The position numbers and the translations under genes were made by a program. 64,000 bases of DNA from a virus. This document shows, piece after piece, positions 4,176 through 64,000 of this stretch. How positions within the stretch are numbered: position 1 is the stretch's first letter; the number at the start of each line of letters is the position of its first letter. The notes beneath the pieces were generated by a model. It was not told the DNA's origin. It was given only the letters and a program-made list of their open reading frames with translations, and made no database searches. The stretch covers positions 30,329-94,328 of IMG/VR virus record IMGVR_UViG_3300027797_000020. One strand, written 5' to 3'.

Positions 4176-4217
4176 TTTGCTTATTATTATATCCAATAAA
4201 TAAGCGGAAGTTTTGAT

Positions 4218-7912: not shown

Positions 7913-7997
7913 GTAGAAAAAAGGTAGAAAATAATCTACCTAAAATATAAATACCTCGTAGAAAGTAAAGTATTTTGGTTTTTTTCGGAATATTTAT
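7913..7997. promoter_or_regulatory. Divergent promoter/operator region between RHH gene and tail sheath
   Basis: Inverted repeat AGGTAGA-N6-TCTACCT (7922-7941), GTAGAAA x3, TATTTATA on minus (7946-7953), TATTTAT on plus (7991-7997). Confidence 0.5.
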
Positions 7998-8033
7998 CAA
8001 ATAAATAAATCTTTTAAGAAAAACAAAAAAATA

Positions 8034-21437: not shown

Positions 21438-21439
21438 TT

Positions 21440-21766
21440 ATGGGTGGAAGACAATATTATAATAGATATGGTAATTTTATCGTAAATGGTCAACAAACAG
21501 TTGTACCATTTGTTGATTTACCAAGCAAAAGTACCGATAAACGATACATTTACAAAGTGGGTCAATCTCGATTAGATAAGATTTCACAACAATATTATGG
21601 GACACCTTACTTTGGTTGGTTGATTATGTCCGCAAATGCTAAATTTGGTGGTCAAGAATGGAACATTACTGATGGTTCTATATTGACAATTCCATTTCCT
21701 TTAGTAGCTTCATTACAGGATTATAACAATCAATTAGAAAATCATTTCTTTTATTATGGTAGGTAA
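21440..21766 (+). CDS. Baseplate wedge protein, LysM-like (T4 gp53 / P2 gpX-like)
   Basis: RLDKISQQYYGTPYFGWLIMSAN...GSILTIP. Confidence 0.8.
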   Translation: MGGRQYYNRYGNFIVNGQQTVVPFVDLPSKSTDKRYIYKVGQSRLDKISQQYYGTPYFGWLIMSANAKFGGQEWNITDGSILTIPFPLVASLQDYNNQLENHFFYYGR

Positions 21767-47649: not shown

Positions 47650-48445
47650 TTATAGATTTACCATACCAACTAATGATACTTACATTAATTTACCAATAGA
47701 AATTAAATGGGATTTTTATGGTCGTGATGATAGTATTGAATTATATGAGGAAGACGTAATTGAAGACATTATTGGTAGTCCTAAAGATTTTGAAATTTTA
47801 CAATTTTCCCACGAATCATATGACACGGGTACTAGAACTGATGTTAATTATGAATTCAATTTTTTTGATAACACCCCCGCGGTTAATCCGAATGTTTTAA
47901 CCTCAGTATCGACTGATTGGGGTCCTACTTACCTTAATGAAGGGTTTACGCCAAATCAGATTTATTATTATGAAAATCCTTTTACTAAATCTTTTTTTAA
48001 GTTGGATTTTTACGATACTGATGACGCAAATACACAAACACTCTATTTCACAATAATAATACCTGTTCAACAGGGTGGTGTTGAGTTGGCAACAATTTCA
48101 CCAATACGTCCCGACGTGAATATTAAGACACCAATTTTTAAATTAGATTTTGTTGGTGATAAGGAGGGTTTTTATATCTATTGGTTAAGAAAGAAGGATG
48201 TTATAAATTTAAGTACTTTTTATATGTCGGCCAAATTTTTTAACGCTAGAATTGGTGCTTTTGTTAGAATGATGAATACGCCACAATCTAATATACCTAG
48301 TAAATTCATATTTGACGACAGAAAATACTTCTATTATAAAGTGACTTTGGATTATAATAAATTTACTTACTCTATTTATGATACAACAGGTGTTAGAGCC
48401 GGAACAACAAGTTCCATAAAATGGTATGAATATATTAACCCATAA
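47642..48445 (+). CDS. Putative structural protein
   Basis: 267-aa aromatic, beta-rich ORF coupled to its neighbours (GTG start). Confidence 0.55.
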   Translation: MNNYRFTIPTNDTYINLPIEIKWDFYGRDDSIELYEEDVIEDIIGSPKDFEILQFSHESYDTGTRTDVNYEFNFFDNTPAVNPNVLTSVSTDWGPTYLNEGFTPNQIYYYENPFTKSFFKLDFYDTDDANTQTLYFTIIIPVQQGGVELATISPIRPDVNIKTPIFKLDFVGDKEGFYIYWLRKKDVINLSTFYMSAKFFNARIGAFVRMMNTPQSNIPSKFIFDDRKYFYYKVTLDYNKFTYSIYDTTGVRAGTTSSIKWYEYINP

Positions 48446-49632
48446 TGGAGGATAGAATTTTTTATTATAAAATATCACCTGAAGTAATTAGAGGTGACCT
48501 TTTTAGTGTTAATTTTACTGGCGATAGTGAAACTACTAACGCTGAATATGTTTATTGTTGTGATATTTATACGAGTGCGGTAACAGAATATTATACCGGA
48601 CAAACATATGCTTATTCCTCAATGACTCAGATTGTGTCGGGAGGTACTATGGGGACATCGTTATTAACAGGATTGACTATCCCAATCTTTATAACTGAAA
48701 ACACCATAGATATTGGTTATTATTCGGCATTTGACGGTATGGTAACTCAAAAAGATACGATATCTAACTTTCTATTTTCCGCCACAACACAAAACCCCAA
48801 TACCTATTTTTTCTACAATACCTCAGATACTGAATTTAAGAAATTTTTATCATTTAGTGAATATAAAGTGGATTGGGGTGATGGTTCGCCACAAACTACA
48901 ATCACCGCAACAAGTCCTAATTTTTATGGTCATACTTATACTCAAACAGGGAAATTTAAGATTTCAATGTCAGGAATGAGTCCTTGGGGTATTAACTTAG
49001 TTGAAAAGGACGTAACCGTACCATATAGTAATATTGTTGCGTCAAACCCTAAAGGTATTGCCTATTTTTTCCCATCAGGTGGTAATTGGTCCGGAACCCC
49101 AATATCTTATGATTATATTTTTAGTGGGGATTCTATTTGTGATGTGGATGTACAAACTAGTGACAATTACACAACTATACCGATAATTATTACGGGGTAT
49201 ACTAATTCAACAATTAATGACTTAGAACAATACGGTAGTAAGTACGACCCTTTATTAATTGGTGGTAAATTTAAACTGAATGAACAAGTTATCATTAATT
49301 CGGATACAGTGGGGGTATTTCGTGGGGTGTCAAATGATGGTTTGTATACCGCCTACACGATAAATAATCTTGACTACTATGATTTTGCGGATGGGACGAC
49401 CGTATTTTCCGCTCAGACATATGGTTTAACGTCGGATATGATTATTTGCACTGCGATTACAAAAAATGAAGTGTTATTAAATGTAATTGATGAAGCAGAA
49501 GTGCAGTCCGATGTATTTATAGAAAGAGGAAAACAATCAGGTTTAGAATCAATTCTTAGGCTTGGTGAAGTGGATAATGTCGGTGACCTTTTAAAATATG
49601 GTTATGGATTTTTTAATGTAATAGAAATATAA
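48445..49632 (+). CDS. Putative structural protein with PKD-like domain
   Basis: YKVDWGDGSP...HTYTQTGKFKISM PKD signature. Confidence 0.6.
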   Translation: MEDRIFYYKISPEVIRGDLFSVNFTGDSETTNAEYVYCCDIYTSAVTEYYTGQTYAYSSMTQIVSGGTMGTSLLTGLTIPIFITENTIDIGYYSAFDGMVTQKDTISNFLFSATTQNPNTYFFYNTSDTEFKKFLSFSEYKVDWGDGSPQTTITATSPNFYGHTYTQTGKFKISMSGMSPWGINLVEKDVTVPYSNIVASNPKGIAYFFPSGGNWSGTPISYDYIFSGDSICDVDVQTSDNYTTIPIIITGYTNSTINDLEQYGSKYDPLLIGGKFKLNEQVIINSDTVGVFRGVSNDGLYTAYTINNLDYYDFADGTTVFSAQTYGLTSDMIICTAITKNEVLLNVIDEAEVQSDVFIERGKQSGLESILRLGEVDNVGDLLKYGYGFFNVIEI

Positions 49633-49633
49633 T

Positions 49634-50551
49634 ATGGCAACAGGAACATATGGAACGGTAAGGCCGGCTGACGTATCACCGGCAGATGTGGAAATAATTT
49701 TAAATTATACCCCGTCGAGGGATGAAACGGATAATTTTTTATTAACAAAATTAAATTCGAGTGCGGTCCTTAAACCGTATTATAGTAATTCGGACATTAA
49801 TCCAAATGTTAGTAACCCTAGTATTGAATTATTGGGTGGTTTGTATAATTTAAAATTACCTGCGGACCAATTTAATAAAGTTGGGATTTATACTTTATTT
49901 ATTAGACCCGCACAGATTAGAACTAAAATATTGGATTGTGGCGTATTATCTTCGTTACCAAATGTTAAAGGTTTAGTGTTTGATTTATCTGATGTTCCAT
50001 CTGAGTATAGAAATAAGTTTGTTAGCCAAGGATTAACAGGGTTTAGAATTGAGTATTTAAATTCTGATGGTACTAAAGTCCCTAATTTTTTTAGATTAAT
50101 TACCTCATCATTTTTCTGTGAACCTGTTGTTCAAAACTTAACTAATAGTTCCCAAAAGGCGATTCGATATAGATATACGGAAAACAATACTAATTTAATG
50201 TATTGTACTGTATCTCCATCGTCATCGCCAACAAACAAACCGAACGCGACTCCATATATTGGACAACCAAATCAAAATGTGATAATTACTAATACATTCT
50301 TCAACCCAATGACATTGGATATTGAAATCGCTGAACACGATTTCTCAACATTAGCAATTGCTCTATTTGGTAATCAAACTAAATCTATGGATGATGGTGT
50401 TTATACTTTATACGATACTGAGAATAATATTTATAGACAATACAACTTATACGAAATTAGAGACCAATACAACCACTTGTTATATGAGGTTAGACAAGAT
50501 AGAGGTGATAATATTGATTTTAGTAAAAACTTTACAAACATAACACAATAA
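49634..50551 (+). CDS. Putative baseplate structural protein
   Basis: 305-aa ORF in coupled baseplate operon; no family motif recognised. Confidence 0.55.
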   Translation: MATGTYGTVRPADVSPADVEIILNYTPSRDETDNFLLTKLNSSAVLKPYYSNSDINPNVSNPSIELLGGLYNLKLPADQFNKVGIYTLFIRPAQIRTKILDCGVLSSLPNVKGLVFDLSDVPSEYRNKFVSQGLTGFRIEYLNSDGTKVPNFFRLITSSFFCEPVVQNLTNSSQKAIRYRYTENNTNLMYCTVSPSSSPTNKPNATPYIGQPNQNVIITNTFFNPMTLDIEIAEHDFSTLAIALFGNQTKSMDDGVYTLYDTENNIYRQYNLYEIRDQYNHLLYEVRQDRGDNIDFSKNFTNITQ

Positions 50552-53500
50552 TGGCGATTAAAAAATATACTTGTCCCCCAACTCCGGCCACAGGTGCGGG
50601 GTCTTTCTCTGACGACTTAGTTGGGTTCCAATTAGTTCAGGGTGGTGGGTTAACGCAAGGAAATTTCAATTTTGTTGAGTCAATAACTGAAAAATCCAAC
50701 CGTACATTTAATACAGGTACATTTTCAGAACCAATAAACTTAGAGGGTTTAGGTGTTAGTGATGTATCACAATCAAAAACAATTTTTGAGAATAATTTCA
50801 AGGTTTATCCGAATTTTGATTTAAGTCAAATAACTAACTTTACGTTATACGGGTCTTTAACTAAAAGACTGTCGGTATCGGTACAAAACATCATTAGTTA
50901 TTTTCCGGCAGCAATTGAATCAACCTTCGCTGGTGTTAATTATGAAACGGGAACTACCGCAAACAATATTAGTTATAATGCTGCTAGCGATGTTACAACA
51001 TTTGATTTGAATGTTGGTCGTTTACGAAATCAATTCGATATTGATTTTACGGACAACTCAACAAGGAATTTGGAATTACGGGAAATCCCTGTATCTCCAT
51101 TAAGAAATTTAACGGTTGAGTATAGTAAATATGCCTTGTATTACGGTGGGGGTGTTTATGATTTGGCCTTTGTCCAATCAACAACATCGTTAGTTTCTGG
51201 AACATTGACAGTTTCGGTGTTTGGTAATCCATTTTCAGGTAAAACTGAAGTGTATGAAAGTTTGTACATTAGACCTAACGATTATGAGGTTAGTAAGGTT
51301 TTTAACGAGGAGTTTGATGAGGTTGAGAAGTTTTTATTAAACAGAACGTCAGCTCCTGTTTATACTTGTGTGTTCAATACTCCAAAAGAGGCTGATGATG
51401 GGACATATTATACTTACACTCAAAAAGTTACTTGGCCTTTAAACGGTCAATGGAATATTGATATTGTTACCGCATCGTTCACACGTTATTTGGAAACATT
51501 AAATGAGATTGCGGAATCGTTGGATTCTTATAAAACGGATTTAATCTCAAGATTTTTAACGACGGGAGCGTTTAAAGAGTTTGACACTATTGGTCAAAAA
51601 ACTGAAAAAACATTACAGATTTACGGTAGGAGTTTTGATGAAACTAAAAAGTTTATTGACGCATTGGCGTATATGAATTCGGTTAACTATAATGTTGGTA
51701 ACGATATCCCATCACAATTACTTAAAAATTTAGCCCAAACTTTGGGTTGGCAAACAAATATGTCACCAATCACAAATGAAGACTTTTTGGGGTCTGTTTT
51801 TGGTGAGAAAAACCACGACAAATCACAATTTTCGGGTGTTGGTACGGCAATGACTCCTGATGAGTTAAATTACCAATATTTCAGAAATTTGATATTGAAT
51901 TCGGCTTACTTATTTAAATCAAAAGGAACTCGAAAGTCAGTTGAAATATTAATGAGATTGATTGGGGCTCCTGACGCTTTAGTTGAATTTAATGAACACG
52001 TTTATTTAGCGGACCAAGTAATTAACTTGAGTCAGTTTAATTCGCAATATGCTCAAATATCAGGGGGTACTTATGTGACGCAAACACCGACATTGGACAC
52101 AAATGATGTTTACACCTTCCAAGGGGTACAATATACAGGGTTTACAACTAGTGTTACGATTAAAGACGTTAACATAGGTAGAAGTGAATTCCCAATGGAC
52201 GAGTATGGTTATCCAATGGCTCCTGAAGATAGTGAAAGTTATTATTTCCAATTGGGTAGTGGTTGGTTTGAACAAACCCCAAGTCATAGAGGTCCCGAAT
52301 TGGTTAACATTACTAATAGTACGTTTGTTGGGGAAAATCCCGATTTTCAAACTTATTTGAAACCTTACACTTATGGTCAAGATTATTTAAATAGGTTTAG
52401 ACAATTCCCATTTATGGATTTGGGATATGATTTAAAATCAACGATTGATAATAATAAAAGTTGGGTTAATACCGAAGTTGGGTTACGAAGTAATCTTGAC
52501 GGTGGTTATAATGCTAAGTATTATGTTAATGACGATAAATTGGTTTTAAATGTTAAAAACATTGATTTATTCTTAAACCCAGGTCAAGGGTTGGCATATG
52601 ATGTATGGTATATGTCAAGAGAATATAATTACCCAATACCAAATGAGGGGTTATTCTACGTAGCACCAACAAATTGTAATCCATTCCCAAGTCAAATAAT
52701 GAAAATGAGTGATACTCAATTTCAGACTTCATTCCCTAACGTTCCCTATCCGGCTAGAGGTGGTGTCGATTGGACTCAAATTGACCCAAAACCAAAAAGA
52801 CAAACATTCTTTGAATTCGCACAATCATTTTGGAAAAATATGATTAATGTTCGAAATAGACAATATGTGTCAAATAATGGGACAACAGGTTATCCAACAT
52901 TGGAATCTATCTATTGGAGGTATTTGTTATCAGAGGAGGCGATTGGTCAACCAAATGATAATTTTACATACCAAACAATGATTGATTATGTTAATGGTTT
53001 GGGGGATTATTGGGTTAGATTGGTGGAACAAATGATTCCGGCATCAACAATATGGAACACCGGTGTTAAATACGAAAATTCGATATTTCATAGACAAAAA
53101 TATGCTTGGAGAAGACAAAGAGGTTGTCAAATCATTCCAATACCTTGTAAACCTTGTTCAACAACATCAAATCTATTCCCTATTGATTGTCCAATACAAA
53201 GTGCGGTATGTTCGGTGTATCCTTGGAACGAAAATCCAAGTGTTCAATCATTCTCGGCGGTTTTAGGTGTGTTAATTAATGACTATTTGACGGCGAATGA
53301 TAAAACAACGGGTGATTGTAACTTAAATGGTTTATCAACTCAATGGTTTGTTGACTTACGAGTGAATGATGGTATTCTTGTTAAGAAATCGTTTTTTAAT
53401 GGTGTTGGTTACACGGTCCCTAGTTTAAGTTCACCAAGTAACTCTCAATGGTATAATGCTTTAGTTCTTTCGTTAGATGAATTGACCAATTTTGGGTACG

Positions 53501-53619
53501 ACTACTATTTAACAAATACGGGAACAGTGGAGATTTACAATTCAATCTGTTCTGAATCAACCCAAGGTTTAACCTTTACGATTAATGTTGGGATAAATTT
53601 AAATTTATGTTGTAATTAA
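50551..53619 (+). CDS. Baseplate wedge protein with P2 gpI / T4 gp7-like domain
   Basis: IPSQLLKNLAQTLGW and RNLILNSAYLFKSKGTRKSVEILMRLIG motifs. Confidence 0.7.
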   Translation: MAIKKYTCPPTPATGAGSFSDDLVGFQLVQGGGLTQGNFNFVESITEKSNRTFNTGTFSEPINLEGLGVSDVSQSKTIFENNFKVYPNFDLSQITNFTLYGSLTKRLSVSVQNIISYFPAAIESTFAGVNYETGTTANNISYNAASDVTTFDLNVGRLRNQFDIDFTDNSTRNLELREIPVSPLRNLTVEYSKYALYYGGGVYDLAFVQSTTSLVSGTLTVSVFGNPFSGKTEVYESLYIRPNDYEVSKVFNEEFDEVEKFLLNRTSAPVYTCVFNTPKEADDGTYYTYTQKVTWPLNGQWNIDIVTASFTRYLETLNEIAESLDSYKTDLISRFLTTGAFKEFDTIGQKTEKTLQIYGRSFDETKKFIDALAYMNSVNYNVGNDIPSQLLKNLAQTLGWQTNMSPITNEDFLGSVFGEKNHDKSQFSGVGTAMTPDELNYQYFRNLILNSAYLFKSKGTRKSVEILMRLIGAPDALVEFNEHVYLADQVINLSQFNSQYAQISGGTYVTQTPTLDTNDVYTFQGVQYTGFTTSVTIKDVNIGRSEFPMDEYGYPMAPEDSESYYFQLGSGWFEQTPSHRGPELVNITNSTFVGENPDFQTYLKPYTYGQDYLNRFRQFPFMDLGYDLKSTIDNNKSWVNTEVGLRSNLDGGYNAKYYVNDDKLVLNVKNIDLFLNPGQGLAYDVWYMSREYNYPIPNEGLFYVAPTNCNPFPSQIMKMSDTQFQTSFPNVPYPARGGVDWTQIDPKPKRQTFFEFAQSFWKNMINVRNRQYVSNNGTTGYPTLESIYWRYLLSEEAIGQPNDNFTYQTMIDYVNGLGDYWVRLVEQMIPASTIWNTGVKYENSIFHRQKYAWRRQRGCQIIPIPCKPCSTTSNLFPIDCPIQSAVCSVYPWNENPSVQSFSAVLGVLINDYLTANDKTTGDCNLNGLSTQWFVDLRVNDGILVKKSFFNGVGYTVPSLSSPSNSQWYNALVLSLDELTNFGYDYYLTNTGTVEIYNSICSESTQGLTFTINVGINLNLCCN

Positions 53620-56129
53620 TGAGTTGTTTTTTAAGTTATAGTTTAACGGGGATAACAGGTGATTGTAGTAATCTAAATGAAGGTTCGTTTGGTATTACAA
53701 TTGATGGTTCAGCTCCGGATTATACAATAAATTGGATAAGTCCAATTACTGATGTAATCCCATTAGGTGCTGGAGTGACCGCCTATACTGAAACTAATTT
53801 AAGTGCGGGTACTTATACTTTCATAATTACGGATAGTTGTTTAGACCCCGGAAATACAACGGTAGGTCCGATATCAATTTATATTTCAAGTGGTGTATGT
53901 ACATCAATAACTAGTGTGAATAATACGGTATGTAGTTTAGATAATGGTTCTTTAACTGCGACAACTGAATATGATTATGGTAGTAATCAATTTTACTTAT
54001 ATCATAACACATTAGGGTATATCACATCAGCAACAACAACTAATACAATAACACCTGCGGGTGCGGTATTTCCTAATTTAAGTGCGGGGACTTATTATGT
54101 TGTTGTCACGGATGGTGGTGGTTGTTCGGGAACAACAACTAGCGTTATTGTAAAGGACTCTCCTCAGTTGGATTATGGTGTGTATATTGTTAACGATGCC
54201 GGATGTAACGTAAATTCAGGTAAGTTATTTGTTACAGGATTAACGGGTACTCCACCTTACACTTATCTATGGAGTAATGGTGAAACGACAGATTCAATTA
54301 CGGGTCTAACCGCCGGTTCTTACGACATCACTGTTAGTGACAATTCGGGTTGTGTTGTTAATAAAACTGAGATAGTTTTAAAAGTACCAACTGTTGGTCA
54401 AGCGGGTGTTTTAGTTGCCTCTCCGGCTTGTTTTGGGAATAATGGTACTGTAACGGTGTTACTTTCGGGTGGTACTGCTCCCTATTATTTTTCAGGGTCT
54501 AATGGTACGGTGACAGTAACTTTTGATAATTTTTATGAATTTAGTAACTTACCGGCAGGTGTGTTAAGTTACTTTGTTCAAGATTCAGGTTTATGTAGTT
54601 TTACAAGTAATGTTTCGGTATTATCACAACAGTCGTTTAATCTTGTTTCGGTAAATACTACTAATTCAAAATGTAATGATACTTCAGGAACAATTACTCC
54701 CTTAGTTTCTTCGGGTACTCCACCATATATTTTTAAATTAACCTCATCTAATGGTTATACTAACTCTATTACAACAACGTTAACAAGTTTTGATTTTACG
54801 GGGTTAGCATCAGGGACTTATACTTTAAGTATTAAAGATGGTAGTAACTGTGAATATACTGACACTTATGTTATTGAGAATGAAGTGTTATTTAGTTTTG
54901 AAGCTAATACTGTTGATACAAGTTGTGGTTTAAGTAATGGGGAAATTCAAGTTGTGGTTGATGGTGGTACAGGTCCATTTTTATATGAAATTAATGGGAT
55001 TTCTGAAATATTAAATTCAAGAACTAAAACATTTTTAAATTTTGATAATGGTAGTTATACTTTAAGTGTTACAGATACAAGTGTACCTTGTAAACAAAGT
55101 ACAACGGTGTTAGTTGGGGATTCATTTGGAGTTGATTATGTTGTTAATTCACAAAATCCGACAGGTTCTAATAATGGTCAAATACAGTTATTTATAACTA
55201 GTGGTCAACCACCATTCACCTATGATTGGAGCTCGAATGTTGGGTCTCAAACAGGTCAATTGATAACTAATTTATCCGCAGGGACTTACACAATAAAGAT
55301 TACTGATGATAACGGTTGTGTAAAAGAAAGTACTATAACGTTACAGGGAGTGAATTGTTCTGTTTCATACGAAATCTATAATTTCACTCAAGACACTTTT
55401 AAAAACACAGGCGATTTAATTACGAAGGGTCCAATACAAATGTTGAATGAAGGTTTTAACGATTTAACCCTTGGGGACGATAACTGTATTTTAAATCAAG
55501 CAATTTTTGAAGCTTATGTGAGTGTTTCAGGTGTTTCAGCGACTACTGTATTTTATACGGGTAATACGTTATTTGATGTACCAAGTAATACCTTATGGGC
55601 GACAACAGTTAGAAACCTTTTATTATCGTTTGACGGTATTGGAAATGTTGTTATTAATACAACAACAAATAAAATTACAATAACAACCGATTGTGCGTCT
55701 GAAGTTTCTTTATTAGATTCGGACATATTAGTTAATATGATAATACATTACGATGTGTCTTGTGTTTCTTGTTCATTATATTGTTCATATGACCAAACAG
55801 GTGTTTGTGATGGTTATAAATTAACTCAAACTCAAAATGTTGGTCTTATGTTAAACCCTACTACAGTACAGTTAGAATTGTATGATGGGGATAATGGTGA
55901 AGTATTGTTTAAGTCAGTACCAAAAATAGTTAATGTGACTAGTGGTTGTTTAAATTCTTATTATTATAATCAAGACCCTCCGGTAACTGACCCTGAAGAT
56001 ATTGCGCATTCGAATCGGGAACTTAGGAATGCGTGTTTGAAGGCGATAAATGAATTATCCTTGGGGACTTACCCATTTACTTGGGCTAACAATTTCTTAC
56101 CTTCATTTCAGATAAATAAATTCTTTTAA
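53619..56129 (+). CDS. SprB-repeat adhesin-like fibre protein
   Basis: Repeated C..NG.I....GGT.PY.Y.W......L.AG.Y...V.D..GC units (e.g. GTPPYTYLWSNGETTDSITGLTAGSYDITVSDNSGC). Confidence 0.8.
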   Translation: MSCFLSYSLTGITGDCSNLNEGSFGITIDGSAPDYTINWISPITDVIPLGAGVTAYTETNLSAGTYTFIITDSCLDPGNTTVGPISIYISSGVCTSITSVNNTVCSLDNGSLTATTEYDYGSNQFYLYHNTLGYITSATTTNTITPAGAVFPNLSAGTYYVVVTDGGGCSGTTTSVIVKDSPQLDYGVYIVNDAGCNVNSGKLFVTGLTGTPPYTYLWSNGETTDSITGLTAGSYDITVSDNSGCVVNKTEIVLKVPTVGQAGVLVASPACFGNNGTVTVLLSGGTAPYYFSGSNGTVTVTFDNFYEFSNLPAGVLSYFVQDSGLCSFTSNVSVLSQQSFNLVSVNTTNSKCNDTSGTITPLVSSGTPPYIFKLTSSNGYTNSITTTLTSFDFTGLASGTYTLSIKDGSNCEYTDTYVIENEVLFSFEANTVDTSCGLSNGEIQVVVDGGTGPFLYEINGISEILNSRTKTFLNFDNGSYTLSVTDTSVPCKQSTTVLVGDSFGVDYVVNSQNPTGSNNGQIQLFITSGQPPFTYDWSSNVGSQTGQLITNLSAGTYTIKITDDNGCVKESTITLQGVNCSVSYEIYNFTQDTFKNTGDLITKGPIQMLNEGFNDLTLGDDNCILNQAIFEAYVSVSGVSATTVFYTGNTLFDVPSNTLWATTVRNLLLSFDGIGNVVINTTTNKITITTDCASEVSLLDSDILVNMIIHYDVSCVSCSLYCSYDQTGVCDGYKLTQTQNVGLMLNPTTVQLELYDGDNGEVLFKSVPKIVNVTSGCLNSYYYNQDPPVTDPEDIAHSNRELRNACLKAINELSLGTYPFTWANNFLPSFQINKFF

Positions 56130-56142
56130 TATTTAAAATATT

Positions 56143-56544
56143 ATGTATTTTTTTGACTTACGCGACTATTATGACTCTAAAGTAATTGGAAATCATTATG
56201 AAGAAATTCCGATTTGTGACCCTGTATGGTCCGATATGGGAACAACGGCAAGGGCAACAAGTGATGCTTATTTTAATGCGATAAATCAGTGGTACAATTG
56301 TGGTTTGACTTGTTTAGAAGATGGTGAATGTAAAGATACTATCTTAGCAAAATGGGCCGTCGTCCTAAATGATATTACGGTTTTTAATGCTGCGTCCACG
56401 GATTTTTGGACTATGATGGGTGAAGAATGTTCAACCGGTGGTGTTTTTGATAGAACAAAATATGATGATTATATTTCCATTCAAGAAACATTGGCCTGTG
56501 ATATTGAAGAATTGACTTACTTAGTTGATGGGTTAGTTCAGTAA
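56143..56544 (+). CDS. Hypothetical acidic Cys-containing protein, 133 aa
   Basis: ORF with A-rich leader filling the gap between the SprB gene and the glycosyltransferase. Confidence 0.6.
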   Translation: MYFFDLRDYYDSKVIGNHYEEIPICDPVWSDMGTTARATSDAYFNAINQWYNCGLTCLEDGECKDTILAKWAVVLNDITVFNAASTDFWTMMGEECSTGGVFDRTKYDDYISIQETLACDIEELTYLVDGLVQ

Positions 56545-56601
56545 TATTTATTTCTACCATTTATTATATTGACTTCTTTAATATTTTTAATTAAAAAGAT
56601 A

Positions 56602-57594
56602 ATGAAGTTTGATGATTTAATATTTGTGTCGGCACAACCTGACGTTCCCTATTTCCATTGGCAAACTAAAGTATATGTTCATAACTTTATAGATAAAGGG
56701 ATAAAACCTAATCAAATCCACGTATTGTTTGTGATTGTTGATGGTGAAGAACCGTCAAAAAAATCTTTAGAATTAAAAGAATACGGTGTTAATGTTCATC
56801 ATTATATTGATGACCGAGAAAACAAAGAATATATTCCAAGTCTAAGACCATTAATTTTATCTAAATGGTTAAAAGAAAATCCCCAATTTGGTAAATGTTA
56901 TTTCTATCACGACTCTGACATTGTTTTTAGGGTCTTACCTGACTTTAATTCAATGATTGAGGACAATATATGTTATTTATCGGATACAACGTCATACATC
57001 GGTTATGATTACTTAAAAGAGTGTTGTGGTCGATATGAAGATGAACATAAAGTATTAAGTGAAAACAAACTTTTATATTTAATGTCAGATATCGTGGGGG
57101 TTGATATTGAAACAATAAAAAACAATCAAAAAAATTCAGGAGGTGCTCAATATCTTATTAAAGGTACGGATTATACTTTTTGGGATAAAGTGTACAAGGA
57201 TAGTGAGAGATTATATGACACTTTAATACATTTCCATAAAAGTTACCCAATCCAAAATGGGTTACAAATTTGGACATCAGATATGTGGGGGGTATTATGG
57301 AATTTATGGTACTTGGGTAAAGAAACTGAGGTTACTGATAAATTAAGTTTTTCTTGGGCTACGGACACCGTAGAACAATATGAGAATAAAATAATACTAC
57401 ATATGGCAGGAGTAACTCCCGATTTAAAACATAGTAAATTCTATAAAGGTGATTTTATCACATTAAACCCAATTGAGTTATTAAAAATCAACGATACTAT
57501 CTTTGACTACATAGATGAGAACAGTTCAACAAAAAAATACATTGAAGTTATGGAATCTATGATAAAAAACGAGAGTAACGATTATTTATTATAA
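56602..57594 (+). CDS. GT-A glycosyltransferase resembling peptidyl-Ser O-galactosyltransferase / Hyp O-arabinosyltransferase (GT96/GT95)
   Basis: YFHWQ, YIPSLRP..L..WL, YFYHDSDIVF (DxD), GGAQYLI, WTSDMWG, ILH; ATG 56602. Confidence 0.7.
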   Translation: MKFDDLIFVSAQPDVPYFHWQTKVYVHNFIDKGIKPNQIHVLFVIVDGEEPSKKSLELKEYGVNVHHYIDDRENKEYIPSLRPLILSKWLKENPQFGKCYFYHDSDIVFRVLPDFNSMIEDNICYLSDTTSYIGYDYLKECCGRYEDEHKVLSENKLLYLMSDIVGVDIETIKNNQKNSGGAQYLIKGTDYTFWDKVYKDSERLYDTLIHFHKSYPIQNGLQIWTSDMWGVLWNLWYLGKETEVTDKLSFSWATDTVEQYENKIILHMAGVTPDLKHSKFYKGDFITLNPIELLKINDTIFDYIDENSSTKKYIEVMESMIKNESNDYLL

Positions 57595-57603
57595 AAACAT
57601 AAT

Positions 57604-57987
57604 ATGGCGATACCAACAGAAAGAAATGAGTGTGGGGTTATAACGATATTCCCTATGTACGTATCTTGTAATTCTACGAATCCATCAAGCATTACTGCAT
57701 CAGATGGGATTGCTAGTCTATTCATATCTGGTGGTACTCCACCGTATTTTATACAATGGAACAATGGAAGTATTGGACAATCCATAAACAATTTAAGTGT
57801 TGGGACTTACACCGCAACAGTAAAGGATTCTAATGATGATTATATTATAACCTCGACGTGTACTTTATCTGTTCCAACAACAACTACAACAACAACTACG
57901 ACAACTACAACATTACCGGTGTACGACTTCTGTTTGACATTTACACCAAGTAGAGATAGTTGGGATTATTTCTATAATAGAAGTTAA
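57604..57987 (+). CDS. Single SprB-repeat protein with poly-Thr stalk
   Basis: GGTPPYFIQWNNG...LSVGTYTATVKD, then P-T12. Confidence 0.7.
   Translation: MAIPTERNECGVITIFPMYVSCNSTNPSSITASDGIASLFISGGTPPYFIQWNNGSIGQSINNLSVGTYTATVKDSNDDYIITSTCTLSVPTTTTTTTTTTTTLPVYDFCLTFTPSRDSWDYFYNRS
57874..57912 (+). repeat. Poly-threonine tract (ACN)12
   Basis: Mixed ACA/ACT/ACG codons. Confidence 0.85.
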
Positions 57988-57998
57988 AAAGAAAATAT

Positions 57999-59105
57999 AT
58001 GTATTTATACGATTTAGGAGATTTATTTGATGGTTATAAGTTTAGTGTTCATTTTAACCCTAGCGGGTTTTATAATGGTAAGAATTCTTGGTTATCCGAT
58101 GATTCATCAATTAAAATTATATGGGACACAACCCTAAATGCTTGGAAATTATCAGGAGATACTTTAGGTAGTACTCAAGTGATAAATACTAATCCGACTT
58201 ATCCCCCAATTAATGGTAATTGGACGGTGTTAGGTCAATCATACGTCGTAACTTCAAATCAAGGGGTGTGTGCTCCTGTGGATGCTTTAAGTGCGACGGT
58301 GAACTATAATAACCCTGGATGTATATGTGATGGGTCAATAAATGTTACTGCAACAGGTGGTGTACCGCCTTATCAATATTCTTATGACAATGGTGTGACA
58401 TATATTGCGAGTCCAATCAAAGGTGGGTTATGTGGAGGTAACTATCAAGTTAAAATAAAAGATAGTGATAATACGATAGTGACTAAAACAGTTGCAATGA
58501 ATACTGTTGAACCTAGAACAACTTATACTATTAATTTAAATACTACGAATACGGTTCTGACTTCGGTGGGTACGTATGAATACACATTTGCAGTCGTTGT
58601 TTCACCACCATTACCTGCGGGAGTTCAGTTAAATTTTGATTTAAATTTCTTAGGTGTGTTTATGAGAACACCAACGATTACTTCAGCAATTTCTTCGTTT
58701 ACTCCACAAGTAATTAAAAATGGTTCGACACAATTAAACTTCACTGATAATACAAACGAAACAACGGGAACGTTTAATGGTTCAGGATGTCAAGGAAATA
58801 CGTCATATAGTACTAATTACTCGTTCACTTATGCCGGATTAAGTATGGTGTCGACTGATGTTTACAGTATTAAGGTGGTGACGACAGAACAGTTAACTTG
58901 CACAGGAACAAATAGTGTAAATGCTGCGATTAGTGATACTGAATTAGGGCCGTTAGGTTACGGAAAAACGGCTTCGGGTCGTTATAGTTGTTGTCAAGGA
59001 AGGTTTACGATTAGTCCAAATACTTCGTATATGAGTAACGCAACGTTAACGGGATGTAATTGTTGTACAATTAATGGGACTTACACTAAATCATTATATG
59101 AATAA
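57999..59105 (+). CDS. SprB-repeat-containing Cys-rich fibre/adhesin protein
   Basis: CDGSINVTATGGVPPYQYSYDNG...LCGGNYQVKIKD. Confidence 0.7.
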   Translation: MYLYDLGDLFDGYKFSVHFNPSGFYNGKNSWLSDDSSIKIIWDTTLNAWKLSGDTLGSTQVINTNPTYPPINGNWTVLGQSYVVTSNQGVCAPVDALSATVNYNNPGCICDGSINVTATGGVPPYQYSYDNGVTYIASPIKGGLCGGNYQVKIKDSDNTIVTKTVAMNTVEPRTTYTINLNTTNTVLTSVGTYEYTFAVVVSPPLPAGVQLNFDLNFLGVFMRTPTITSAISSFTPQVIKNGSTQLNFTDNTNETTGTFNGSGCQGNTSYSTNYSFTYAGLSMVSTDVYSIKVVTTEQLTCTGTNSVNAAISDTELGPLGYGKTASGRYSCCQGRFTISPNTSYMSNATLTGCNCCTINGTYTKSLYE

Positions 59106-59125
59106 AAAAATTAAAAAATAGATAA

Positions 59126-61573
59126 ATGGGGTTCATTTTAAAAAACACATCAGGATTAGTTAACACTAGATTTACTGATGCCGCAAGACAAAAGTTGTCT
59201 CAGGGTAAATTTAATATTAGCTATTTCCAAGTTGGGGATAGCGAGGTATTGTATAATACGTTACTACCACCATACTCTCAATCGAGTACTATGATATTAG
59301 AACCTGGATTTAACGCTCAGAACTCAAGTGGTTCACCTGAGTCAAACAAACAAAATGTTAAATATCCTTATTATGTTGATGGTACAGGTGGAAATACTTA
59401 TGGTATTCCTTATATGGATTCGGTAGTGAGTCCAATCTATAATACTGCGGCGATTAGAGGGTTTTTTAGTGGTGATACTAGTGTATTACCAACGAGTTGG
59501 AGTGCATTAACGGGTAATGAGTATGTTGTTAATTCAAATTATGTTGTTGATATGAGTAGTTTGACGGGTGGTACTGTGATAACGATAAGTCAATTAAGTT
59601 GTAATCCTGTTCAGTATACACAACCATCTATTGGTGATATTATAACAATTTATTACGATAATTTAGGTGCTAGTAATTGTGGTTGTGTTAATTTACCAAC
59701 ACCCACACCAACGCCAACACAATATGCGACTCCGACACCAACACCTTCAAACACTCCAAGTCCTGATGCTCCTTGTGCTTCACCAACACCAACACCATCA
59801 CCAACACCGAGTTTTTGTCCTGACCCAACACCTACCCCAATAAAAACGGATTGTGTTATGTCGATGTCGTCTTGTTATCCTGTTTTAACGTACAGAGTTG
59901 TTGATTATTGTAATGATAAAATAACATTGGATAGACCCACACCTGACTTTTCAAACATTTCTTTTTCAGGTTGTTACGCTCGTGTTTTGGTATATCCAAA
60001 ACTAATTACAGGTTTGTATGATAGTACAACTCCGTTGGCTCATTACAGTGATGATATTATTAATTTTGAATCTGTTTGTAGTGTTGATGAATTTAATGTG
60101 AAAATTTGGAATATGAATATTCCTTGGTCTGAAGACTTAGCAGGTTTAGATTCTGCGGTTTATAAAGATTACCAACAATTTGGTTCGGTTAATTATTTAG
60201 GGACTAAAGAATACTTAGGTTATATGTCAAATAGTGGTCAAACATTTTTCATAAATAACTCATTAAGTGCGGAAACAACTGACACATATTATTATAATTC
60301 ATTTGATGAGGTGGTTAAAGTTGAACCTGAAGAACAAAAGGCTATCGCGATAATTCACTACACTAACCAAACTATTGATTTATTCTATGGTGAAAAATTC
60401 GCTTTAGAACCTTATGACCCATCGGCACCTTATGACACTACAGGTCAAGCTAGAAACTTTAAATTACATATACCTTGGTTGATGTGGCATAAAAATCCTG
60501 ATTGTTGTTATGGTGAGACATTTTGGGTTGACCCTCCAGGTTTTGATGACTTGACTGTTTCAGGTAGTCCATTGTTTAAGGTTCATTATTTACAATCAAC
60601 TAAAAATGTTGATATGAACTCACCTGGTCTTAGATATTATAATTTATGGGATACTAATCCAACGGCAAGTGGGTATCCAAGTAGAATTGGTAAAGTGTTT
60701 CCTGACGATAGGTTGATTGTTATTGATGATGAAGAGATAATTGCTGCGATGTCGTACAAATCTAATCGAAATTGGACGTTACCCGCAACTAAATTGTTTT
60801 TATCAACACCTAACACTTGTAATACAATTGGTGATAGTGTGGGGGTTCTAACGGGGTCTAACGAGACTATGTTTGTAACTTATAGATTCACAAACACAAC
60901 CGCATTTACAAATTCATTACATTGTAACTACTATTCTAAAATTACCGGACCAAACAACGTGTGTAATCCGTCTGATTCTGAAAATGTTGGAGTTAGATTT
61001 GGTGGTAATTTATCTTGTTTGACTAATTATACTGATTCATTTAAACAAGGGTTTTTTGCTGAAAAAATTGAGATTCTTTGTCAAAAAGTTGCGACGGGGG
61101 ATAGACCAAATTCTGATGATTGGTTGATAATTGATATGACAGACCAAATTAGTGCAAGTACTATTAACGGTTATATAACTGAAGATGTTTTGACAGGTAC
61201 TACGTTTGTTATAACTAAAGATTTGTATGATACTGCGGTTGCTAATATGGATTATTATAATTTGGATGATTATGTTAATTTAACGGAACAAGGTGTTACA
61301 ACACCACAACTTAATTTTGGTGATGAGTATTATTTCTATGGTTCACTTGAAACTGATATTGAGGCAACAATCTATGAAATGAGGTATAAGGTTAATTTAT
61401 CAAACACTGAGTTTCAAACAAGTACAAATCCAACTTGGACTACAACAACAAAACCATATATAACTGAAATTGGTCTTTACGATTCTGATAAAAACCTTAT
61501 GATTGTATCTAAGCTACAATCACCGGTTTTAAGACAGGGGATTCAGCAATTTTTAGTTAAATTTGATTTTTAA
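59126..61573 (+). CDS. Baseplate/tail-fibre attachment protein with internal Pro/Thr linker
   Basis: N-terminal TDAARQKL...ISYFQVGDSE and C-terminal YITEIGLYDSDKNLMIVSKL (tail-collar/fibre anchor-like). Confidence 0.6.
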   Translation: MGFILKNTSGLVNTRFTDAARQKLSQGKFNISYFQVGDSEVLYNTLLPPYSQSSTMILEPGFNAQNSSGSPESNKQNVKYPYYVDGTGGNTYGIPYMDSVVSPIYNTAAIRGFFSGDTSVLPTSWSALTGNEYVVNSNYVVDMSSLTGGTVITISQLSCNPVQYTQPSIGDIITIYYDNLGASNCGCVNLPTPTPTPTQYATPTPTPSNTPSPDAPCASPTPTPSPTPSFCPDPTPTPIKTDCVMSMSSCYPVLTYRVVDYCNDKITLDRPTPDFSNISFSGCYARVLVYPKLITGLYDSTTPLAHYSDDIINFESVCSVDEFNVKIWNMNIPWSEDLAGLDSAVYKDYQQFGSVNYLGTKEYLGYMSNSGQTFFINNSLSAETTDTYYYNSFDEVVKVEPEEQKAIAIIHYTNQTIDLFYGEKFALEPYDPSAPYDTTGQARNFKLHIPWLMWHKNPDCCYGETFWVDPPGFDDLTVSGSPLFKVHYLQSTKNVDMNSPGLRYYNLWDTNPTASGYPSRIGKVFPDDRLIVIDDEEIIAAMSYKSNRNWTLPATKLFLSTPNTCNTIGDSVGVLTGSNETMFVTYRFTNTTAFTNSLHCNYYSKITGPNNVCNPSDSENVGVRFGGNLSCLTNYTDSFKQGFFAEKIEILCQKVATGDRPNSDDWLIIDMTDQISASTINGYITEDVLTGTTFVITKDLYDTAVANMDYYNLDDYVNLTEQGVTTPQLNFGDEYYFYGSLETDIEATIYEMRYKVNLSNTEFQTSTNPTWTTTTKPYITEIGLYDSDKNLMIVSKLQSPVLRQGIQQFLVKFDF
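59696..59840 (+). repeat. Pro/Thr-rich (PT)n linker punctuated by Cys
   Basis: PTPTPTPTQYATPTPTPSNTPSPDAPCASPTPTPSPTPSFCPDPTPTP. Confidence 0.85.
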
Positions 61574-61574
61574 T

Positions 61575-62174
61575 ATGAAGAAAACATTAAAAGAAAGTCC
61601 TAAAGTTTTAGGACTTGATGTTTCTACCAAAACTATTGGATGGGCATTATTTGATATACAAAGTCGAGAACTTTTAGAATTAACACATATTTCGCCAGTA
61701 CCAAAACCTGTAGAAGAAAGTAAAATTAAAGAACTTTTACTTAAAAGTGACATTTTCAAAAGTAAATTGGTTCAATATAAAGATATGGGAATAACAAGTG
61801 TTGTTATTGAAGAACCATTACTTAATTCTAACAACATTAGGACCGTTCAAACTCTATTGAGATTTAATAGTTTTGTTTGTAAAGTTATTTACGATACGTT
61901 GGGAATCGTCCCTGAGTTTATTTCAACATATAATTCAAGAAAATTCGCATTCCCTGAGTTGGTTCAAGAGAATGATAAAGGAAAACACGTTTTATTTGGT
62001 GGATTACCAAAAGATATTGACAAGAAAATGATTGTGTGGGAGAAGGTTGCTAAACGAGAACCACAGATTCAATGGTTATATACTAAAAACAACACATTGA
62101 AAAAAGAGAATTTTGACCAAACAGACGCCTATTGTTGTGTGTTAGGTTATATGACTCAAGAAAAAATTTGGTAA
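61575..62174 (+). CDS. ruvC: RuvC-like Holliday junction resolvase
   Basis: VLGLDVSTKTIGWA, VVIEEP, DQTDAY; ATG 61575. Confidence 0.8.
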   Translation: MKKTLKESPKVLGLDVSTKTIGWALFDIQSRELLELTHISPVPKPVEESKIKELLLKSDIFKSKLVQYKDMGITSVVIEEPLLNSNNIRTVQTLLRFNSFVCKVIYDTLGIVPEFISTYNSRKFAFPELVQENDKGKHVLFGGLPKDIDKKMIVWEKVAKREPQIQWLYTKNNTLKKENFDQTDAYCCVLGYMTQEKIW

Positions 62175-62188
62175 ATTATTTTAATAAT

Positions 62189-62220
62189 AAAAAAAGGGAA
62201 GATAATACTTCCCTTTTTTT
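62189..62220. terminator. Bidirectional terminator
   Basis: A7-GGGAAG-N6-CTTCCC-T7 between convergent genes. Confidence 0.85.
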
Positions 62221-62275
62221 ATGCCCTTTTGTTTTGTAATTCGGAAATGTTTTACAATACAAATATAATGATAAA

Positions 62276-64000
62276 TTATTGTAATTCTATAAATCCTGTA
62301 CCATCTTGTAATATTATGTAATCCCCTGTTTGTAATAATAATAGATTTCCTAATGTTGTTGGTGTTGGTGATGGTGTATATGATGGGGTAACACTTGGTG
62401 TGAATGAAGGTGTGACTGTTGGTGTGATTGATGTTGTTGGTGTAATAGTATTTGTTGGGGTAACCGTAGGTGTTGAGGTTTCAGTTATTGTGGGTGTTAC
62501 AGTTGGTGTTGAAGTGTTAGTTTGTGTTGGTGTGTTAGTTGGTGTTTGTGTTACGGTAATCGTCGGTGTTTGAGTGTTGGTTGGGGTTGGCGTCGGAGTT
62601 GGACAAGGGTTTATTGCGGTACAAGGTGAACAATCATAATCACCATCGAAAGGTGGGTAAACAGGTTTAGTATCGTCCCAAACAATGGTTGGAGAACCTA
62701 TTGCAGGATATGTCCCGACTTTATAACAATATCCATTAGTTGCGACAACAACATAATTAGCGTCTACTCCGGCGTATGTCATAGGAATACGAATAACATC
62801 ATATGTTACATATGTCCCACAACAAGGATATGATTCAGCAATAACATAAACAGTTGTTGGTGTTGGGGTTGGTGTTTTAGTTGGTGTTACAGTGTTAGTT
62901 GGAGTGACGGTTGATGTGTTAGTTGGTGTTGGGGTAACTGTAGGTGTTGAAGTTTCTGTAATTGTAGGTGTTACTGTAGGTGTTGACGTGTTAGTTTGTG
63001 TTACGGTAATAGTCGGAGTAACAGTTGGTGTTTGAGTTTCAGTTATTGTTGGTGTTACAGTAGGTGTTGGAGTTACAGTTGGTGTTTGAGTTTCAGTTAT
63101 TGTTGGAGTAACCGTAGGTGTTTGAGTTTCAGTGATAGTTGGTGTGACAGTTGGGGTTGAAGTTTCGGTTATTGTTGGGGTAACTGTAGGTGTTGATGTA
63201 TTAGTTTGTGTTGGAGTAACCGTAGGCGTTGAAGTGTTGGTTTGTGTTGGAGTAACCGTAGGTGTTTGAGTTTCAGTAATAGTTGGTGTGACAGTTGGTG
63301 TTGAAGTTTCGGTAATTGTTGGAGTTACTGTTGGTGTTGGAGTTTCGGTAATTGTTGGAGTAACTGTAGGTGTTTGAGTTTCAGTTATTGTTGGAGTTAC
63401 AGTAGGTGTTGAAGTGTTAGTTTGTGTTGGAGTTACAGTAGGTGTTGAAGTGTTAGTCTGAGTTGGGGTAACTGTTGGAGTTTGCGTTTCGGTAATTGTT
63501 GGGGTTACAGTTGGTGTTGATGTATTTGTTTGAGTTGGGGTAACTGTAGGTGTTGATGTATTTGTTTGAGTTGGTGTAACTGTAGGTGTTGATGTTTCAG
63601 TTATTGTTGGTGTAACTGTTGGCGTTGAAGTTTCGGTAATTGTTGGTGTAACCGTTGGTGTTGAAGTTTCGGTAATTGTTGGTGTAACCGTTGGTGTTGA
63701 TGTATTTGTTTGAGTCGGGGTTACAGTTGAAGTTGGGGTGACAGTTGGTGTTTGGGTTTCTGTAATGGTGGGTGTTACTGTCGGAGTAACCGTTGGAGTT
63801 TGCGTTTCAGTTATTGTTGGGGTAACTGTTGGCGTTGAAGTATATGTGACTGTTGGTGTGACAGTTGGTGTTGAAGTGTTAGTTTGGGTTGGGGTTACAG
63901 TCGGTGTTTGCGTTTCAGTTATTGTTGGGGTAACAGTTGGTGTTGAAGTTTCGGTAATTGTTGGTGTTACAGTTGGTGTTGGGGTAACTGTTTGAGTTGG
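62276..64000 (-). CDS. Mucin-like Thr/Pro repeat protein, C-terminal 574+ aa (start lies beyond window)
   Basis: Frame of the track ORF 62276..62782 appears open to the window end; long (T-x)n repeat, a small Cys domain, a second TP block, and C-terminal LLLLQTGDYIILQDG motif. Confidence 0.85.
   Translation of the reverse strand, partial: PTQTVTPTPTVTPTITETSTPTVTPTITETQTPTVTPTQTNTSTPTVTPTVTYTSTPTVTPTITETQTPTVTPTVTPTITETQTPTVTPTSTVTPTQTNTSTPTVTPTITETSTPTVTPTITETSTPTVTPTITETSTPTVTPTQTNTSTPTVTPTQTNTSTPTVTPTITETQTPTVTPTQTNTSTPTVTPTQTNTSTPTVTPTITETQTPTVTPTITETPTPTVTPTITETSTPTVTPTITETQTPTVTPTQTNTSTPTVTPTQTNTSTPTVTPTITETSTPTVTPTITETQTPTVTPTITETQTPTVTPTPTVTPTITETQTPTVTPTITVTQTNTSTPTVTPTITETSTPTVTPTPTNTSTVTPTNTVTPTKTPTPTPTTVYVIAESYPCCGTYVTYDVIRIPMTYAGVDANYVVVATNGYCYKVGTYPAIGSPTIVWDDTKPVYPPFDGDYDCSPCTAINPCPTPTPTPTNTQTPTITVTQTPTNTPTQTNTSTPTVTPTITETSTPTVTPTNTITPTTSITPTVTPSFTPSVTPSYTPSPTPTTLGNLLLLQTGDYIILQDGTGFIELQ
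62852..64000 (-). repeat. Degenerate 36-bp / 12-aa tandem repeat (TPTVTPTITET[SQ] / TPTVTPTQTNTS)
   Basis: About 30 units with synonymous variation; Thr at every second residue. Confidence 0.9.

Follow-up and report, generated by a model that had tools for sequence, protein, structure and literature searches.

The stretch analyzed here, hereafter called the window, is the terminal 64 kb of a 94-kb virus contig from IMG/VR (CheckV completeness 32%). It contains an open reading frame (ORF) at 56602-57594 on the plus strand whose 330-amino-acid product falls into family phrog_4417 and is predicted to be a GT-A-fold glycosyltransferase with a D104-x-D106 motif and an invariant H267. We consider it probable that this enzyme and a poly-threonine (poly-Thr) tag together constitute a module for O-glycosylation of the virion. 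The acceptor would be threonine in proteins, and the tagged proteins would be components of the particle; these points, as well as the identity of the sugar and its effect on the particle (shielding, stiffness, or adhesion), we infer. A first-pass annotation of this DNA had linked the enzyme to threonine-rich virion proteins, and such a tie holds up: the family is associated with Thr tracts on neighboring proteins, including capsid and tail-tube proteins, repeatedly and in several phyla.

Association of the enzyme family with poly-Thr tracts

One comparison comes from phages that either possess or lack the enzyme. For a test of gain and loss, 27 viral loci were retrieved with the tail-less tail-tube protein of Enterococcus phage phiFL1A alone as query. 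The tube protein was Thr-tailed at all 12 loci that encode the enzyme and at none of the 15 that do not, and the two states (enzyme with Thr tail, and neither enzyme nor tail) were interleaved by identity in two sublineages. A tblastn search with the window ORF identified family members in 77 phage records; most are phages of Lactobacillus, Enterococcus, Staphylococcus, and Lactococcus, one is a Chryseobacterium phage, and there were no mycobacteriophages among them. In phiFL1A, the enzyme gene has the gene for the major tail protein on one side and the tail chaperone genes on the other, and both the tail protein and a likely capsid protein end in Thr-only tails, which are the only real Thr tracts of the genome. 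In Lacticaseibacillus phage R3.3, a Thr-tailed capsid-like ORF directly precedes the enzyme gene, and the tail-tube-like ORF is Thr-tailed as well; in Lactococcus phage bIL285, it is the capsid gene that directly precedes the enzyme gene, and T9 forms the end of orf50. In the latter two phages, real poly-Thr tracts occur only as C-terminal tails of capsid or tail-tube proteins. Chryseobacterium phage MA9V-3 has two ORFs with long Thr/Ser tracts upstream of the enzyme gene.

The association extends to bacterial genomes. At 80 loci spread over Bacteroidota, Firmicutes, Actinomycetota, Saccharibacteria, Proteobacteria, and further groups, in which neighbors within eight genes of the enzyme were inspected, a poly-Thr/Ser tract was encoded by the adjacent upstream gene (position -1) in 20 of 76 cases, compared to 17 of 854 other neighbors (odds ratio [OR] 17.6, p 8e-14).

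Within the window itself, the best candidate for a tagged protein is encoded directly downstream of the glycosyltransferase by an ORF at 57604-57987 (plus strand), whose 127-amino-acid product consists of an SprB-like immunoglobulin (Ig) domain, a run of twelve threonines (T12, 57877-57912), and a 24-residue tail. This run, which the first-pass annotation had placed correctly, is encoded by a mixture of ACA, ACT, and ACG codons, which means that it is maintained at the protein level. It is the only pure Thr run in the window; the only other one in the 94-kb contig is a T7 run that accompanies a PT tract in a 228-residue ORF upstream of the window (contig positions 26906-27589, plus strand).

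Relatives from the phage's own clade allow pure Thr runs to be separated from tracts in which threonine alternates with other residues. As peptides, T12 would stand for the Thr runs, and (PT)6 and TPTVTPTITETQ for the TP-repeat type. When clade loci were fetched with the enzyme, Thr/Pro tracts were present in 78 of 80, which are close kin and not independent, and a Thr run or a PT linker was almost always encoded by the gene that follows the enzyme. As a clade marker independent of the enzyme, we used a conserved 815-residue protein encoded nearby; the enzyme lay within 10 kb in 55 of 80 loci retrieved in this way. Pure Thr runs were present in 44 of 49 marker loci with the enzyme and in 9 of 19 without it (OR 9.8, p 4e-4), the 'without' cases being weak ones. 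The linker of the 815-residue protein is itself a Thr run in many relatives that have the enzyme and PTPTPT in relatives that lack it. Two complete relatives with the enzyme contain 5 and 3 genes with Thr runs, as well as 11 and 9 with PT tracts. The enzyme family is absent from G006, a complete relative of 322 kb, in a search whose positive control found the family in 5 of 5 genomes. Judged by these sequence comparisons, what the enzyme tracks in this clade is pure threonine runs and not (PT)n.

Several results weigh against the module as proposed. The density of TP-type tracts hardly differs between clade loci with and without the enzyme (8.4 vs 10.1 amino acids per kb, p 0.15), and G006 retains 12 PT-tract genes despite having no enzyme, with essentially no Thr runs. 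Fifty-three of the 80 bacterial loci are without a nearby Thr tract, the capsid protein encoded upstream of the enzyme in a Lentibacillus prophage has no Thr tail, and the locus counts ignore shared ancestry. A virion role of the T12 protein is deduced from its position and SprB-like domain only, and glycosylation by the family is a prediction.

The first two of these results bear directly on the suggestion of the first-pass annotation that the phage glycosylates its own Thr/Pro stalks and that the enzyme should co-occur with TP-repeat genes in relatives. Within the clade, no such association emerged: (PT)n and Thr-x tracts occur as often with the enzyme as without it, and what survives of the suggestion is the linkage to pure Thr runs. 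The (PT)n linker and the Thr-x repeat protein of the window may be glycosylated as well, but the comparisons lend this no support, and rigid, protease-resistant stalks are speculation. One could go further and regard the Thr/Pro tracts of the window as ordinary, unglycosylated flexible linkers, with an enzyme that in this phage has at most a single, minor acceptor and is retained by descent from ancestors in which it acted on other proteins. The indifference of PT tracts to the enzyme, the PT-tract genes of G006, and the solitary pure Thr run of the window would all suit this explanation; against it, the enzyme is highly conserved among hundreds of relatives (52-93% identity, catalytic residues intact), and the Thr-run gene directly 3' of it is kept across the clade. 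We therefore regard unmodified linkers as an unlikely account of the locus, and favor the enzyme and poly-Thr tag as a functional pair.

Fold and kinship of the enzyme

The start codon of the glycosyltransferase gene was taken to be the ATG at 56602 in preference to an upstream TTG because full-length homologs measure 329-330 amino acids. Its product matches phrog_4417, annotated as 'unknown function', with an E-value of 1.5e-66 (residues 8-320 aligned to positions 3-291 of the 293 in the profile). The family is large, with 1716 clusters at 90% identity in a word search and, at 50% identity, 833 representatives. No Pfam family matches the ORF, even at E 10, and the GT8 profile PF01501 is likewise without a match; searches of PDB chains by sequence with the ORF and with the family profile returned only TALE-repeat artefacts.

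The structure model, built with 57 homologs, is of high quality (pLDDT 96.9, pTM 0.93) and gave 389 Foldseek matches in the PDB at E<=0.001, with the catalytic domain of UGGT, WbbM, LARGE1, XXYLT1, and LgtC at the head of the list; glycogenin and Skp1 alpha-galactosyltransferase are also among the nearest folds. Among the matches listed, the top structural matches are all nucleotide-sugar transferases, mostly retaining enzymes of the GT8 clan. In the model, a strand at residues 99-102 is followed by H-D-S-D at 103-106, and D104 is conserved in at least 90% of the 57 homologs, D106, H267, and K282 in all of them. A DxD motif combined with a distant His is the metal-binding layout of GT8-type enzymes such as LgtC and glycogenin. 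The protein has neither a signal peptide nor a membrane segment and opens with the first Rossmann beta strand (residues 7-13). On the evidence of the model, the ORF is a DxD GT-A glycosyltransferase with a retaining-type fold; the first-pass annotation had taken it for a glycosyltransferase on account of ordered motifs that include the DxD. That annotation had also named an ordinary GT8 enzyme as best structural match among the outcomes that would speak against its proposal. The best matches do belong to the GT8 clan, but this is in our view no refutation: to our knowledge, there is no solved structure for GT95 or GT96, the families that it had invoked, and several top matches (glycogenin, Skp1 GalT, and GlyE) act on proteins.

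The presence among the nearest folds of LgtC and WbbM, enzymes of lipopolysaccharide (LPS) and polysaccharide synthesis, does raise the question of whether the acceptor is a protein at all. The enzyme might instead modify the host's envelope polysaccharide, teichoic acid, or LPS, thereby blocking superinfection or changing a receptor, or might modify phage DNA, with its proximity to Thr-rich genes arising as a by-product of accessory-gene insertion into structural modules. Many phage glycosyltransferases target DNA or O-antigen (PMC12619734), and the 53 bacterial loci without an adjacent Thr tract would fit. However, such targets leave unexplained both the co-variation of enzyme and Thr tail at the tail-tube loci and the enrichment of tracts at position -1. 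Envelope modification, moreover, usually requires membrane access, and this protein contains neither a membrane segment nor a signal peptide. The operons that harbor the gene are late structural ones rather than modules for lysogeny or DNA metabolism. An envelope or DNA target thus seems to us quite unlikely, and protein threonine remains the preferred acceptor.

The first-pass annotation had described the enzyme as GT95- or GT96-like on account of the ordered motifs YFHWQ, YIPSLRP..L..WL, HDSDIVF, and WTSDMWG, all four of which are found in the translation. The plant hydroxyproline O-arabinosyltransferases HPAT1-3 (GT95, PF23452) and the Ser alpha-galactosyltransferase SGT1 (GT96) have the same ordered motifs; for HPAT, the likeness was examined here by way of PF23452-bearing bacterial proteins, which served as the comparison set. 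Alignment of the family profile with 29 such proteins by hhalign gave a probability of 79.6% (E 1.5e-5, 263 columns), with PYxxWQ, Y.P..(R/K)P..L..W, DxD, W-x-(S/A)-D-M, and a late His all co-aligned. Reciprocal searches with hidden Markov models (HMMs), on small sets, recovered 68 of 120 and 38 of 279 sequences at E<1e-3 with best values of 5e-8, compared to a best E of 0.09 for reversed and shuffled controls, and HPAT made up 20 of the 30 nearest named clusters in a language-model atlas, which we treat as a lead only. Two results count against a closer relationship: the ORF does not match the Pfam HPAT profile (PF23452, gathering cut-off 23.9 bits) even at E 10, and an hhalign probability of 80% is only modest. 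The same profile fails to match 55 of the 57 homologs, reaches only E 0.09 with the other two, and gives no match when applied to the contig of the window and to 4 carrier phages. By profile comparison, the phrog_4417 family is probably distant kin of the HPAT-family proteins and not a member of Pfam HPAT; the motif order given in the first-pass annotation aligns column for column, and the label 'GT95-like' would apply in this distant sense, with the ORF below the Pfam threshold.

Plant GT95 and GT96 enzymes glycosylate repetitive structural proteins and peptides rich in Ser and hydroxyproline (Hyp), the HPAT reaction being the transfer of L-arabinofuranose to Hyp. Whereas plant HPATs reside in the Golgi by means of a type II membrane anchor, the phage ORF is soluble and has no hydrophobic N-terminal segment, and whereas the acceptor of plant HPAT or SGT1 is Hyp or Ser, that of the phage enzyme is presumed to be Thr. 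The GT95 and GT96 families are related (PMC8012813); GT95 is predicted to be GT-A-like, and for GT96 the prediction is a novel fold that is not GT-A (PMC8476585).

PF23452 does match genes in two bacterial genomes, where they are distinct from the members of the phage-type family that these genomes contain as well. In Candidatus Microthrix (L095), an HPAT-family gene (3181-4215, minus strand) coexists with a fusion of ~1030 amino acids that has a phage-type N-terminal domain (7932-11015, plus strand), such that two distant paralogues lie 4 kb apart, and L092 has the same layout. The 120 relatives of these bacterial HPAT genes among the matches listed all bear PF23452 and are mostly fused to PqqD. 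These proteins, of ~380 amino acids with PqqD at the C-terminus (P0281-P0400; for example, L167:1006-2139 and L168:1333-2298, both on the minus strand), come from Alphaproteobacteria, Myxococcales, and others and, since PqqD is the peptide-recognition element of ribosomally synthesized and post-translationally modified peptide (RiPP) pathways, are candidate peptide glycosyltransferases.

Other cellular relatives contain the phage-type domain itself, fused to a GT60 N-acetylglucosamine (GlcNAc) transferase, a protein O-fucosyltransferase, GT6, or discoidin domains. In the long fusions P0150, P0148, P0139, P0240, and P0272, the phage-type domain is combined with GT60, protein O-fucosyltransferase, GT6, GT2/GT4, an FkbM-type methyltransferase, or discoidin, which suggests that they are one-polypeptide assembly lines for multi-sugar glycans. 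Chromosomal members in Chitinophaga niastensis (L100:4559-12104) and Pedobacter gandavensis (L120:4603-12716) are fused to a second transferase-like domain. They adjoin genes for radical SAM and LanC-like proteins, a VKOR-thioredoxin-C39 protein, and a C39-ABC exporter, as well as small Cys/Gly/Thr-rich ORFs, and by gene content look like clusters for glycosylated ribosomal peptides. Cellular relatives of these kinds point to acceptors that are peptides or proteins.

These fusions also bear on whether the family is catalytic. The enzyme activity is a prediction, and the gene order of phiFL1A, with the family member placed between tail-tube and tail chaperone genes, could be read as that of an assembly factor or chaperone that has a glycosyltransferase fold and binds poly-Thr tails. 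The DxD aspartates, His267, and Lys282 are nevertheless invariant or nearly so in the 57 diverse homologs, as is expected of a working site for metal and nucleotide sugar, and relatives are joined to additional glycosyltransferase domains; we consider a non-catalytic chaperone highly improbable, and favor an active glycosyltransferase.

The locus in the jumbo phage genome

The window derives from an AT-rich jumbo myovirus of uncultured source, as judged from its tail sheath and baseplate wedge genes, its complete relatives of 290-322 kb, and its guanine-cytosine content of 33.5%; genes for replication and nucleotide metabolism are present in the window as well. The tail sheath gene (8034-11885) is recognized by the PHROG sheath profile. 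Its product is unusually long, at 1283 amino acids, and the 496-position profile is stretched over the entire length, which implies large insertions. A baseplate wedge subunit gene (38307-40145, plus strand) opens the tightly packed plus-strand array that holds the glycosyltransferase gene and extends from 38307 to 62174. Because the wedge gene heads this array and a sheath gene is present at 8034, 'fibre/baseplate operon' is a reasonable inference for the locus; PHROG and Pfam assign no virion role to the proteins adjoining the glycosyltransferase, and no role to ORFs 45883-53619, 56143-56544, 16404-28433, and 40217-45880. A megablast search of 50000-64000 against cultured phages gave no match.

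Upstream of the glycosyltransferase, an 836-amino-acid protein (53619-56129, plus strand) contains four SprB repeats and no Thr tract by the criteria used, and a 133-amino-acid protein (56143-56544, plus strand) begins with the motif MYFFDL and is also devoid of Thr tracts. SprB domains had been claimed for this neighborhood: the 53619-56129 ORF passes the Pfam threshold (E 1.1e-21), and those starting at 57604 and 57999 fall just below it. The latter (57999-59105, plus strand), which follows the T12 gene, encodes a 368-amino-acid protein with a weak SprB match and the N-terminus MYLYDL. The start motifs of the ORFs at 56143 (MYFFDL.D, 56143-56160) and 57999 (MYLYDL.D, 57999-58016) are alike and are the only two of their kind in the window. 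In many relatives, a single gene of 450-750 amino acids takes the place of ORFs 57604-57987 and 57999-59105, and we considered whether the two represent one frameshifted gene; this was rejected, as the two closest relatives (L169 and L170) share the layout with two separate ORFs.

Next in the array is the conserved 815-amino-acid protein (59126-61573, plus strand). Its (PT)n linker, of ~50 residues, was confirmed at ~59693-59848, beginning at 59693. A model of this protein from a 30-sequence alignment reached a pLDDT of only 48.8 and was not used for a fold search. Beyond the array lies a gene on the minus strand (62276-64000) that encodes more than 380 amino acids of 12-residue Thr-x repeats, a small globular domain, and a second TP tract, and is open at the contig end. 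The repeat, specified by a degenerate 36-nt tandem repeat in ~20 copies, is thus real, but its assignment to the operon had to be abandoned: because it is on the minus strand and beyond a strong, bidirectional terminator-like hairpin (62187-62222, 15-bp stem), the gene is a separate, convergent unit. The contig stops within the tandem repeat (62925-64000), where the assembly probably broke, and relatives of the gene reach 1000-1750 amino acids.

Matches to sigma-70-type promoters in 53000-64000 are at chance level (52 vs 50 expected). The heptamer TATTTAT, to which the first-pass annotation had drawn attention at 56545 as belonging to the glycosyltransferase gene, is present there and is not over-represented in the window (49 vs 46 expected). 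However, 10 of its 29 plus-strand copies are located 12-57 nt (<70 nt) upstream of a plus-strand gene start (7991, 11907, 12882, 14438, 16379, 32926, 37835, 40196, 56545, and 57583), where uniform placement would yield ~1. These start-proximal copies could be a phage promoter element, or merely AT-rich spacers.

Proposed mechanism and known systems

Under the proposed mechanism, the glycosyltransferase would act as a soluble, metal-dependent GT-A enzyme of the retaining type, with a divalent metal held by D104, D106, and H267. It would take a sugar from a host nucleotide sugar and place it on the Thr hydroxyls of exposed poly-Thr runs in structural proteins, in the host cytoplasm and before or during particle assembly. 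The best acceptor candidate would be the T12 run in the product of the next gene (57604-57987), followed by the T7 run encoded upstream of the window on the same contig. The general O-glycosylation system of Bacteroidota is periplasmic and hence out of reach of cytoplasmic virion proteins, so that it makes sense for a phage to encode an enzyme of its own.

Looking beyond this phage, we lean slightly toward a broader interpretation, in which an unannotated transferase family, distantly akin to the plant extensin enzymes, and a short poly-Thr tag form a portable, two-part glyco-tag that is gained and lost as a unit in Firmicutes, Bacteroidota, and other phyla; it would coat capsids, tail tubes, and the fibre-like proteins of jumbo freshwater phages, while cellular relatives would glycosylate ribosomal peptides. 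If so, glycosylation of the particle would turn out to be a general trait of phages: in addition to that of the mycobacteriophages there would be a second, unrelated enzyme family, which goes with a simple tag and is spread through hundreds of phages that infect lactic acid bacteria, enterococci, staphylococci, and aquatic Bacteroidota. This would have a bearing on the immune recognition of therapeutic phages, on phage stability in dairy fermentations, and on adhesion to mucus or host surfaces, and would supply a genetically encodable pair of tag and enzyme for the glyco-engineering of phage particles. The relationship to the glycosyltransferases of plant cell-wall proteins and to PqqD-fused bacterial enzymes would further indicate that peptide-directed transferases form an old family, one that has hardly been studied except in plants. 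The cultured carriers phiFL1A, bIL285, R3.3, and MA9V-3 make poly-Thr glycosylation directly testable.

Our literature search returned no description of this family, of DUF7164, of poly-threonine phage glycosylation, or of HPAT in phages. Among known protein-acting transferases of the GT8 clan, glycogenin (3u2t), Gat1 (6mw8), and GlyE (5gvv) are only 8-11% identical to the ORF, which lacks a GT8 Pfam match. GlyE, from the pneumococcal pathway for serine-rich repeat proteins, and Gat1 extend an existing sugar and do not start on the peptide. The capsid-glycosylating A064R of chlorovirus PBCV-1 (2p6w) has only general GT-A similarity to the ORF and belongs to a system with N-linked-type glycans, a eukaryotic virus, and no Thr tag.

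The closest parallel is found in mycobacteriophages Che8, Corndog, and Myrna, in which phage glycosyltransferases have been demonstrated by experiment to modify the C-termini of capsid and tail-tube proteins (Freeman et al. 2023, Cell Host Microbe 31:1216, as cited in PMC12619734). As far as is known, experimental evidence for phage virion glycosylation is essentially confined to mycobacteriophages. As in that system, the capsid and tail-tube C-termini of Firmicutes phages are the parts that bear tracts beside the enzyme gene, and the combination of a phage transferase with Ser/Thr-rich tracts on virion proteins recurs in the family, being represented in the window by the T12 ORF directly downstream. 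In contrast to the mycobacteriophage capsid tails, the tract of the window phage is an internal linker of a fibre-like protein. The glycan is here predicted from genes, the tag is nearly pure Thr, and the hosts are Firmicutes, Bacteroidota, and others: the enzyme family differs from the mycobacteriophage enzymes, and goes with a simpler tag and a much wider host range.

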